The notes beneath the pieces were generated by a model that was not told the origin of the DNA, did not search any database, and worked only from the letters and a program-made list of their open reading frames with translations. This document shows, in pieces, positions 36,464 through 50,935 of a stretch of 51,258 nucleotides of DNA (positions are counted from its first letter, which is position 1; every line of letters starts with the position of its first letter). The DNA comes from Candidatus Berkelbacteria bacterium (GTDB lineage: Bacteria; Patescibacteriota; UBA1384; JACPKC01): assembly GCA_016198415.1 (NCBI GenBank), contig JACQIO010000014.1, forward strand, positions 1-51,258, in the 5' to 3' direction. The position numbers and the translations under genes are program-made.

Positions 36464-36492
36464 TTGACAGCGAGGGATGGCCCTGCCACAAT
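36464..36492 (+). promoter_or_regulatory. Sigma70 promoter for 36553-36837
   Basis: TTGACA-17 nt-CACAAT with TGn. Confidence 0.55.
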
Positions 36493-36552
36493 GCGCTGTC
36501 CGATGCTCACGCATCGGCCTCTCAATCATCCTTTAATATGAGGTGGATAGGT

Positions 36553-36837
36553 ATGCACCGACTCAAGCAGCACGCGGCCCTCATCGCCTACCCCGTCTGG
36601 GCCGGGGGCTGGTGGTGGTACGGCCTGAACGGACACCAGGAGGCGAGGGTCGCGGCCTTCATGGCCGCGCTTGCCGCCTTCTTCACCCTCCCGCTCCTGG
36701 TCTTCGCGCCAGCGATGGCGCCGGGTGAGGTCAGCCTGGCCCCCAAGACCAGGGCGGAGTGGTGCAGCCTCGGCGGCTGCCTGGCCTACGTGGCGACGGT
36801 CATCGTCACGCTCTGGCTGACCGGCACCCGACTCTAG
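36553..36837 (+). CDS. Small membrane protein (3 TM, hypothetical)
   Basis: GAGGTGG SD, own promoter and 3' hairpin. Confidence 0.65.
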   Translation: MHRLKQHAALIAYPVWAGGWWWYGLNGHQEARVAAFMAALAAFFTLPLLVFAPAMAPGEVSLAPKTRAEWCSLGGCLAYVATVIVTLWLTGTRL

Positions 36838-36866: not shown

Positions 36867-36890
36867 GAACCGGCCCGCCTGGGCCGGTTC
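36867..36890 (+). terminator. 10-bp stem hairpin after the small membrane gene
   Basis: GAACCGGCCC-GCCT-GGGCCGGTTC. Confidence 0.6.
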
Positions 36891-36943: not shown

Positions 36944-36981
36944 ACAACGCATTTGCCTACGATCGTAGGCAAATGCGTTGT
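36944..36981. repeat. Perfect 38-bp palindrome, downstream of the PaaX-like gene
   Basis: ACAACGCATTTGCCTACGATCGTAGGCAAATGCGTTGT. Confidence 0.95.
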
Positions 36982-37001
36982 TTGATGGAGGGAGGGAGAA
37001 C

Positions 37002-37591
37002 TCAGAGCTGAAATCGTACCCGAAGGTTCTCATCACCATCGATCCGAGCCGTCTCAAAGAACAGGACACGCTGCTCGAGCTTGTACCGCTCTCGGAGCCA
37101 ATCGATCTCGTCGCGACATGGCCACGGACAGATCCAGGCCGAGTGCTGGATATGGACGAAGCCAAGTCGGGTCAGCGTAGCGCGCAACCGATCGCGATCC
37201 TCCCGCCGCTTCTCTGGGACGTCCCAGATCACCACCCGCCAGCGCCCGTCCCACCGCTTGGGCCGTTCGAGCTCGAGCGACTCCTCTTCAAAGGCTGGAA
37301 GAAAGAGGCGCGTCTTTGAGGTCACCGTCACGTGGTGCCTAAGCACCTGCAGGTACTCTTGGCGGCGAAGACGAGCGAGCGAGTCGCGGAGCGGAACTGT
37401 CGTTCGGACAGCCAAGGCATCTTCCCGTGCGCGTAGTCCCAAAGACGACGTTGGTCGAAGGCGACCGAACCCACCTCCTCCATGAACCGTGCGCATTCGA
37501 CGAGGATGAGTTTAGCGGTTCGTCCGAGCCCGCGCACTCGCTGCTTCAATCTCTGCCCTTTCCAATGCTGCTGATCTCGATCCCGCTCCAT
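37002..37591 (-). pseudogene. PaaX-like protein (winged HTH plus Cas2-like domain), frameshifted by a 5-bp duplication
   Basis: ATG 37591 after GGGAGGG; WDGRWRVVIWDVPEKRREDRDRLRATLTRLGFVHIQHSAWICP; removing one GCGGA at 37386-37395 joins two track ORFs into a 194-aa frame. Confidence 0.85.
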
Positions 37592-37632
37592 CGAGCCCTC
37601 CCACCAAAGCGTCCAGAGTTGCTACAGGGATC

Positions 37633-37670
37633 ATAACGCATTTGCCTACGATCGTAGGCAAATGCGTTAT
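37633..37670. repeat. Perfect 38-bp palindrome, upstream of the PaaX-like gene
   Basis: ATAACGCATTTGCCTACGATCGTAGGCAAATGCGTTAT; 34-bp core identical to 36946-36979. Confidence 0.95.
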
Positions 37671-50899: not shown

Positions 50900-50935
50900 C
50901 ACCAAAGAGACGCGCTCAAGCGCGTCTCTTTGGTG
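50900..50935 (+). terminator. 16-bp stem hairpin between pilins 3 and 4
   Basis: CACCAAAGAGACGCGC-TCAA-GCGCGTCTCTTTGGTG, followed by TGGTAGAAT extended -10. Confidence 0.65.

Follow-up and report, generated by a model that had tools for sequence, protein, structure and literature searches.

The contig analysed here, referred to below as the window, is a 51,258-nt stretch of DNA from a Candidatus Berkelbacteria bacterium (JACQIO010000014.1, assembly GCA_016198415.1). At positions 36944-37670 it holds a 727-bp unit in which a single gene of the PaaX family lies between two copies of one palindrome. The gene (37002..37591, minus strand) is a short form, encoding a predicted winged helix-turn-helix (wHTH) region followed by a PaaX_M/Cas2-like domain with no PaaX_C domain, and it is frameshifted. 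The two palindromes, which we call twins and to which no strand is assigned, are each perfect over 38 nt. The downstream twin (36944-36981; ACAACGCATTTGCCTACGA-TCGTAGGCAAATGCGTTGT; ACAACG...CGTTGT) lies between convergent genes, 20 bp past the stop codon (37002-37004 to 36981), and the upstream twin (37633-37670; ATAACG...CGTTAT), a putative operator or recognition site, ends 41 bp before the ATG (37633 to 37591). Their inner 34 nt are identical; the sole difference is the second base together with its mirror position (C..G versus T..A), and because the change is matched in mirror both twins are still perfect palindromes. An earlier note, made from the letters of this DNA alone, had described the identical cores, the compensatory outer pair, both gaps and a lower GC content than that of the surroundings, and each of these is borne out (GC 0.47 for the 38-mer, measured on an identical copy on contig C9 of the same genome, versus 0.638 for the contig). 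With up to three mismatches allowed, the window holds the 34-mer at these two places only, and no match turned up in 100 dinucleotide shuffles. The upstream twin has a hairpin potential (as RNA or DNA) of -36.8 kcal/mol (z -7.4), and in general the hairpins are strong, each at about -37 kcal/mol (z about -8).

The gene is split into two overlapping minus-strand open reading frames (ORFs), 37591..37328 (87 aa) and 37496..37002 (164 aa). Alignment of both frames to the intact relatives P0002 (78% identity) and P0003 (72%) shows what broke the gene: 5 nt, GCGGA on the plus strand, are duplicated in tandem (37386..37395, a feature without strand), and this shifts the frame inside the wHTH region. 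Removal of one GCGGA unit restores a frame of 585 nt, that is 194 aa plus a stop codon, the length that the earlier note gave for the repaired protein. The duplication also appears, with no differences, in the Logan contigs of two runs that belong to one study, possibly the source sample of the assembly; it is therefore in the reads, although the runs may be the assembly source. Read from its sequence, the gene of the unit is a pseudogene here, which the earlier note left implicit. The 78%-identical orthologue begins MVLLPTIVGKS and, to judge from the translation, keeps a 21-nt palindrome core upstream. The 164-aa ORF matches PaaX_M (PF20803) with E=3.3e-25 and 88.4 bits (cut-off 24); on DNA the domain covers 37026..37259 of the minus strand (90.3 bits) and holds the Asp of a WDVPE motif and a QHSAW motif. 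The 87-aa N-terminal part has no Pfam match. Scores against Cas2 profiles stay under their cut-offs (CRISPR_Cas2, PF09827, 17.4 bits versus 23.8; TIGR01573, 20.8 versus 24.5), as does that against the PaaX equivalog TIGR02277 (29.1 versus 264.55), and the protein stops after the M domain.

Of 61 related genomes, 45 contain PF20803, and the matches per genome run from 0 to 9. Copy number is patchy, at 0-9 per 0.5-1.3 Mb genome, nine versus one within a single genus, and up to nine in ~0.7 Mb. Two groups can be told apart, a long form of ~236-285 aa with conserved neighbours and a short form of ~165-230 aa in variable contexts. By eye, the long-form neighbours include a convergent downstream gene resembling RNase III. 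At each locus the 300 bp leading up to the start codon were matched against the 300 bp that follow the stop codon, and genes below 235 aa were taken as short forms. In the first set (genome searches, fetched regions and nine metagenome loci) all 19 long forms (≥ 235 aa) score ≤ 21.4 bits; among the 56 short forms whose flanks both measure 150 bp or more, 50 score above this value and 42 reach 30 bits. The second set, an independent sample of species-representative genomes, drew 76 new loci from a pool of at least 570 relatives, in records titled Berkelbacteria, Giovannonibacteria, Gottesmanbacteria, Doudnabacteria, Paceibacterota and other Patescibacteria; here 57 of 69 lie above 21.4 bits and 48 of 69 reach 30 bits. 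Pooled over both sets, the short forms reach 30 bits in 90 of 125 own pairs of flanks versus 3 of 125 mismatched pairs, in which the upstream flank of one locus was set against the downstream flank of another. Above 21.4 bits the counts are 107 versus 26 of 125; the long-form maximum is thus too lax a threshold for AT-rich flanks, and we rely on the 30-bit figure. Loci with a flank shorter than 150 bp (five short forms of the first set, four loci of the second), L069 (identical to L068) and four second-set loci identical to earlier ones were dropped. Twin repeats also occur in two of the three second-set ORFs of ≥ 235 aa, which may be short forms with over-extended starts. The flanking palindromes that the earlier note suggested looking for in homologues are thus present, with locus-specific repeats, in most short forms.

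The repeats lie mostly 0-95 bp before the start codon and mostly -28 to ~ +100 bp (up to ~ 200 bp) after the stop codon. At the 55 short-form loci with a callable downstream neighbour (crude ORF calls) that neighbour is co-directional in 31 and convergent in 24, and we rejected, as a general rule, the idea that the downstream twin is the operator of a co-directional next gene. The exact palindrome core occurred in 0 stretches of metagenome contigs, a collection that may omit records of the window's own genome, and a protein-guided scan of metagenomes gave distant relatives only (34-57% identical). A plasmid collection yielded four distant actinobacterial PaaX-like matches and a phage collection none. 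One homologue, P0011, is named 'CRISPR-associated endonuclease Cas2' in the NCBI record of a Sungbacteria metagenome-assembled genome, probably a misnomer for the family.

The repeat has a characteristic anatomy. Over 86 copies symmetry is 0.81-0.97 at offsets 1-4 and 0.79-0.90 at offsets 12-17, with a dip between and background values beyond 20; since the centre was chosen by maximising symmetry the absolute values are inflated, but the dip is not created by that choice. The outer symmetric arms are ~ 29 bp apart, centre to centre, and the total span is ~ 36-38 bp. The central hexamer, scored in 100 copies, is CGATCG in 40, CGGCCG in eight, CTATAG in seven, CTATCG in five and CGTACG in four. 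Even though many copies are only weakly palindromic (symmetric at 11-14 of 18 positions), both copies of a locus match each other. Where the repeats are asymmetric they are direct at 16 loci and inverted at two, with 25 tied. The repeat differs from locus to locus (median arm identity 0.80 within and 0.37 between loci), and arm similarity tracks protein similarity, with Mantel rho values of 0.12 (reached by 7 of 2000 permutations) and 0.19 (0 of 2000). Some relatives, such as L046, carry A-run/T-run flanks. The paralogues L165 and L167, on two contigs of one genome record, share 87% DNA identity over the Cas2-like half only; the unalignable winged-helix half and flanks suggest, on sequence comparison, fast divergence of the DNA-reading part.

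The host genome (G000; 738 kb in 37 contigs, 62% GC) is 83% complete, so that genes missed in it count as not found rather than absent. Site contexts were assigned with a codon-usage gene model trained on this genome, plus Pfam. The earlier note treated the palindromes as a feature of the unit. The twins do bracket the gene, but the palindrome (family A) also occurs at four further intergenic sites and so is not private to the unit. An identical 38-mer lies ~ 55 bp before an ABC-transporter ATPase gene (C9:3791-3828), a copy with three changes in the central 20 nt lies between convergent genes (C1:3723-3760), and diverged variants lie between convergent genes (C22:2133-2170) and 69 bp before an RHH gene (C23:16346-16383); none is assigned a strand. 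Three family A copies are identical over 34-38 nt. All six sites are 3' of at least one gene and three lie between convergent genes; by our own reading of the contexts, five of the seven solo sites of families A and B are upstream of a gene. Further families of long, loop-less, AT-rich palindromes are present, namely B (centre CGGCCG), C (TATATA), D (CGATCG) and E. Besides the window gene the genome has two PaaX_M genes. The paralogue on contig C22 (L010:1198-1854; 219 aa, intact, 38-40% identical to the window protein) is bracketed by family B, with an imperfect copy ~ 70 bp upstream and a perfect 34-mer 103 bp downstream. The paralogue on C17, a long form of 285 aa, has no bracketing palindromes; its ORF opens with three tandem 27-nt repeats (HHVRLTRYV three times; L011:1129-1215), and the position equivalent to the Cas2 Asp is Asn. 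In agreement with the earlier note, which saw no paa catabolic genes, cas1 or CRISPR array, searches of G000 gave 0 matches to PaaA/PaaC (PF05138) and 0 to Cas1, and the window contains no repeat array. Phage_integrase (PF00589, tyrosine recombinases) and Resolvase (PF00239, serine recombinases) likewise gave 0 matches each in G000. Four Y1_Tnp genes of IS200/RAYT type (L117-L120; C3:12922-13245, C10:250-516, C4:8324-8590 and C31:17366-17635, strand not given) each lie between their own palindromic repeats, so that the layout of a gene between cognate palindromes is common to two unrelated gene families in this genome. Family E belongs to one of these loci (L117, 1450-1478 and 1865-1893) and has solo copies at C31:20799 and C4:38080.

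In an alignment of 60 short forms two residues are invariant, the Asp of F-D-I-P-E and the Ser of Q-x-S-V-W. The Asp position is D in 133 of 133 short forms; in the 18 long forms from the 61-genome search it is D in five, N in seven, E in three, S in two and H in one, and across all ORFs of ≥ 235 aa it is D in 10 of 23. By alignment, Escherichia coli PaaX has neither this Asp nor the QxSVW motif. In the Pfam Cas2 profile the short-form Asp falls close to position 8, which we take to be the metal-binding or catalytic Asp of Cas2. An AlphaFold model of the C22 paralogue (pLDDT 82, pTM 0.61) consists of a winged helix (helix-helix-helix-strand-strand) followed by a beta-alpha-beta-beta-alpha-beta domain, and the profile matches wHTH chains of MarR/PadR type. 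Foldseek ranks PaaX (8a39) first and Rv0674 (3kfw) second, with numerous chains of Cas2 and VapD after them; searched by profile, the PDB sequences likewise give PaaX 8a39 (E=2e-4), then wHTH regulators. When modelled as two copies the protein scores 0.57, against 0.00 for the best of three controls, and so clears the pass mark of the method. Of proteins solved as pairs 20 of 30 clear that mark, and of those solved as single chains 1 of 23; at least 36% of contacts are shared between runs, and the partner has a pLDDT of at least 67. It is the Cas2-like domain that forms the modelled interface, the Asp strand included, with both Asp residues at the interface, on the dyad. Cas2 and PaaX dimers have already been solved, and the pass of the dimer model may reflect likeness only.

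Comparison of related genomes shows that the unit is missing from some syntenic loci. In G004, which is of the same family and another genus, genes for a methyltransferase, a 514-aa membrane protein and a UDP-GlcNAc 2-epimerase are contiguous; in the window the last two of the three are parted by 1435 bp, made up of the unit, a 99-aa ORF and a hairpin. The unit of G046 is part of 927 bp that separate two blocks matching G029, of the same genus, at 92% and 79% identity; the syntenic locus of G029 holds an unrelated 384 bp with no such palindrome. Judged by these alignments the cassette is accessory, with gains and losses among relatives. The locus is not fixed in synteny; a fixed locus is what the earlier note would have taken to speak against its proposal. 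The ends of the indels do not coincide with the palindromes in either comparison, and none of the compared syntenic loci was an empty site that kept a solo palindrome. Beside the G046 unit there is a 147-nt, apparently non-coding block, 92% identical in two genomes of the same genus (L027:1093-1239, L123:1433-1576), for which Rfam gave no match.

Palindrome copies number six in G000 (family A), seven in G057, three in G046 and two in G040. The most similar pairs of units are syntenic orthologues and paralogues within a genome are ≤ 79% identical, so no sign of recent transposition was found; nor were near-identical units in different contexts found among the collected loci. As to homology boundaries at the palindromes, the pairs compared were syntenic orthologues or too diverged to tell. 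For sequencing data we used Logan contigs of three runs from one study. These contained no excision joints or circle junctions, although contigs cannot reveal rare excision products; they break at the palindromes, and the loose ends are the flanks of the C9 copy. The earlier note left a choice between a mobile element and a looping autorepressor. Identical units elsewhere, an excision junction and an empty site with a solo palindrome were not found; the note's further suggestion of a self-targeting unit gained no support.

The safest conclusion is that protein and repeat form a cognate pair that is inherited as one cassette. We consider it likely that the protein binds its own palindromes. This proposal of the earlier note is well supported, if indirectly, by the excess of own over mismatched flank pairs and by a site geometry like that of PaaX. 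According to a published review, the E. coli PaaX operator is TGATTC-N27-GAATCA, with a span of 39 bp, and PaaX represses its own promoter (PMC9493321). The short-form site resembles that operator in being a long-range inverted repeat of similar span (36-38 bp here). The protein itself resembles E. coli PaaX in its make-up, a predicted winged helix and after it a Cas2-like domain for dimerisation, and 8a39 is its top match in both fold and sequence. Unlike PaaX, the window protein has no PaaX_C effector domain and is far under the TIGR02277 cut-off, no paa genes were found in the host genome, and the short forms keep the Cas2-type Asp and QxSVW. The conserved centre of the short-form site and its second copy past the stop codon also set it apart from the PaaX system.

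We tentatively favour a portable, self-regulating and self-insulating cassette whose dimeric protein binds the palindromes that bracket it. The reasons are that PaaX sets a precedent, that the upstream copy is placed as an operator would be, and that solo copies are found before genes. The short PaaX-family protein would dimerise through its Cas2-like domain, and its two winged helices would contact the outer arms ~ 29 bp apart, in a way similar to the binding of TGATTC-N27-GAATCA by E. coli PaaX. The upstream copy would overlap the promoter or 5' untranslated region and so bring about autorepression, and the downstream copy would serve as a second site, allowing a repression loop by bridging around the 0.6-kb gene. 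The downstream copy may also be a roadblock to transcription coming from the neighbours and thereby insulate the cassette, so that, as we propose, control of the gene would be independent of its location. Solo copies (on C9 before the ABC-transporter ATPase gene, on C23 before the RHH gene, and others) may be further sites of the same protein. In G000 the cassette would have just been inactivated by the 5-bp duplication.

GalR, DeoR and LacI offer a model for such looping: there a single oligomeric repressor bridges a pair of like palindromic sites that stand on either side of a promoter or gene. By analogy the twins around the gene may work likewise; unlike here, however, the second operator of those repressors is not a family-wide feature just past the regulator's own stop codon. 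Indeed we know of no transcription-factor family with a hallmark operator directly after its own stop codon, and this is one of several points that weigh against a self-regulating cassette. With 24 of the 55 downstream neighbours convergent, the second copy is often no operator for the next gene, and half of the family A sites lie between convergent genes. The three identical copies are more uniform than usual regulon operators. A consensus scan found no sigma-70-like promoter at the upstream twin. Lastly, a centre conserved despite differing arms and an Asp invariant among short forms hint at chemistry beyond binding.

That hint leads to the strongest rival, a selfish or mobile unit, which we regard as a real possibility though less probable than the self-regulating cassette. 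Here the wHTH-Cas2-like dimer would be a site-specific nuclease, nickase or recombination-promoting protein acting at the palindrome centre, the twins would be the ends of the unit or a duplicated target, the solo copies would be empty targets or scars of loss, and the whole would parallel REP-RAYT or IS200/IS605-type systems with a protein that is not HUH. Cognate flanking repeats typify mobile and REP-RAYT units, and all four Y1_Tnp genes of G000 are bracketed in this way. The Asp, invariant in short forms, is relaxed in the long forms, which lack palindromes (D in 5 of 18), and E. coli PaaX has neither Asp nor QxSVW; in the dimer model both Asp residues sit at the dyad, and in the DNA it is the centre that is conserved and the arms that vary. 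Such a unit would also account for the patchy distribution, with its nine versus one copies in one genus, for absence at the syntenic loci of G004 and G029, for the contigs that often break at or near these genes, for the decay of the window copy to a pseudogene, and for solo copies between convergent genes. Direct asymmetric repeats (16 versus 2) are what a duplicated target, att-like sites or IS200/IS605-type ends give. The expected traces of movement are missing from the same data: near-identical units in different contexts were not found, the closest being syntenic orthologues, palindrome copy numbers are low (six, seven, three and two in four genomes), the syntenic indels are not bounded by palindromes, the empty locus of G029 has no solo palindrome, and the contigs of the three runs hold no joints or circle junctions. 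Nor were Cas1 or tyrosine or serine recombinases found in G000, and we know of no case in which Cas2 acts as a transposase or recombinase.

The likeness to hairpin-flanked elements that the earlier note drew holds for the arrangement of gene and repeats and, for REP-RAYT, fails on orientation, since direct copies do not fit terminal inverted repeats or the inverted REPs of RAYT. As in REP-RAYT, a single-copy gene lies between its own short palindromic repeats, repeat families differ by paralogue, and solo copies are intergenic. Unlike REP-RAYT, the protein is PaaX_M and not HUH/Y1 (the four Y1_Tnp genes of G000 lie elsewhere), asymmetric copies are direct rather than inverted, and each palindrome family has 2-7 copies rather than tens to hundreds. 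As in IS200/IS605, a small gene stands between two similar imperfect palindromes in direct orientation, but the unit has no Y1 transposase and no TnpB, and multiple identical copies were not found. With Cas2 and VapD the modelled protein appears to share the ferredoxin-like fold, a conserved Asp that closes strand 1, the Q-x-S-V-[FW] motif and the use of this domain for dimerisation; it differs from Cas2 in its scores under the cut-offs, in its fused, predicted winged helix, and in that no Cas1 was found in G000 and no array in the window. By analogy, the nearest likeness may be to PaaX in DNA recognition and to REP-RAYT in gene layout.

A bolder form of the enzymatic idea, to our minds possible though less likely than not, is that the short forms are sequence-specific enzymes in which the winged helices read the variable arms and a Cas2-like dimer with its pair of invariant Asp residues on the dyad acts on the conserved CGATCG-type centre. 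Each gene with its twins would then be a new type of selfish unit, a Cas2-fold counterpart of REP-RAYT, and the direct twins of ~ 36 bp would arise by target duplication, as CRISPR repeats do at spacer integration. The regulatory and selfish readings are compatible and not mutually exclusive.

It is very improbable that the palindromes act only as RNA or DNA hairpins, as bidirectional terminators or REP-like mRNA-stabilising stem-loops with no link to the protein. The hairpins are strong (about -37 kcal/mol), all six family A sites are 3' of at least one gene, and the A-run/T-run flanks of L046 and some other relatives would suit terminators. Against this, the repeat is specific to its gene and tracks protein similarity, in most loci one copy lies 0-95 bp before a start codon, poor palindromes (11-14 of 18) still match between the copies of one locus, and long-form homologues have no repeats. 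The consensus scan of the window for promoters and terminators called one promoter-like site at 36464-36492, none at the unit, and 0 terminators, so there is no T-tract terminator at the unit by that measure, and an Rfam search there gave nothing near gathering score. Weakest of all is the idea that a recombinase of the host uses the palindromes in trans (Xer/dif-like or integron-like), with the PaaX-like gene as cargo: arms around a 6-8 bp centre over 34-38 bp are similar to loxP or dif-type sites and other single genes are bracketed too (C4:52067/53264, C22:1180/2133, C8:1666/3113 and C66 of G057), but, unlike in a Xer/dif module or integron cassette, no tyrosine or serine recombinase matched in G000, the repeats differ for each PaaX-like gene, which does not fit one shared recombinase, and some brackets pair two different palindrome families.

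Patescibacteria have very small genomes with few recognisable regulators or mobile elements, and the family described here is large, with at least 570 loci among species-representative genomes. Most short-form members carry their own cognate site pair, which offers more than 100 natural pairs of protein and DNA site for studying how this fold reads DNA. The family poses a clear choice between a portable, self-insulated regulator and a Cas2-fold selfish nuclease. The enzymatic reading, if true, would bear on the origin of Cas2 and of palindromic, CRISPR-like repeats, as these proteins would count as free-living Cas2 relatives for which a tie to palindromic repeats already exists. Such genes should not be counted as CRISPR remnants or phenylacetate regulators, although at least one is named 'Cas2' and the Pfam domain is labelled PaaX. 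We found no published description of short PaaX/Cas2-like genes bracketed by cognate palindromes, in a search that left subscription journals and supplementary files outside its reach. There is a credible chance that this is something new: the layout with cognate palindromes appears new in form, and the gene is set apart from PaaX proper, Cas2, RAYT and insertion sequences.

Next to the unit, within the 1435-bp segment missing in G004, the window carries a 99-aa hydrophobic ORF (36538..36837, plus strand, coding score 18.6) that is convergent with the unit. It is followed on its 3' side by a GC-rich hairpin (36867..36890, plus strand; -21.6 kcal/mol, z -5.1), which the consensus scan did not call as a terminator and which, although inside the extra segment, is probably not part of the unit proper.

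Elsewhere in G000, family C palindromes (ACTAAACTATCATGCTATA-TAGCATGATAGTTTAGT) occur at C8:1666-1701, C8:3113-3148, C28:1362, C9:5726 and C4:52067, at the end of C7 and at the start of C20. Since both C7 and C20 end in this palindrome, the assembly breaks at these repeats. No PaaX-like gene cognate to family C or D was found in this genome. The C8 pair encloses two genes with no Pfam match. On C4 a 363-aa minus-strand gene (L014:3068-4298, C4:52067-53297), which by eye resembles a secreted enzyme of staphylococcal-nuclease type, has a family C variant just past its stop codon, while a family B variant precedes its start by 52 bp. An SRPBCC/polyketide-cyclase gene on C22 (PF10604, E=5e-13; L012:1180-2170) lies between a family D palindrome (1180-1217) and the family A variant at 2133-2170. 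The end of an IS30-like transposase gene with HTH_38 and rve domains (L019, C4:78257-79318) is 32 bp before a family B palindrome. In G057, a 296-aa gene that is Fic-like by eye (C66:2080-3658, L057/L058) stands between two palindromes cognate to the PaaX-like gene on C171 of that genome. Near the end of the window itself, at 50900-50935, there is a 36-nt near-perfect palindrome (CACCAAAGAGACGCGCTCAAGCGCGTCTCTTTGGTG), probably a hairpin of terminator type.

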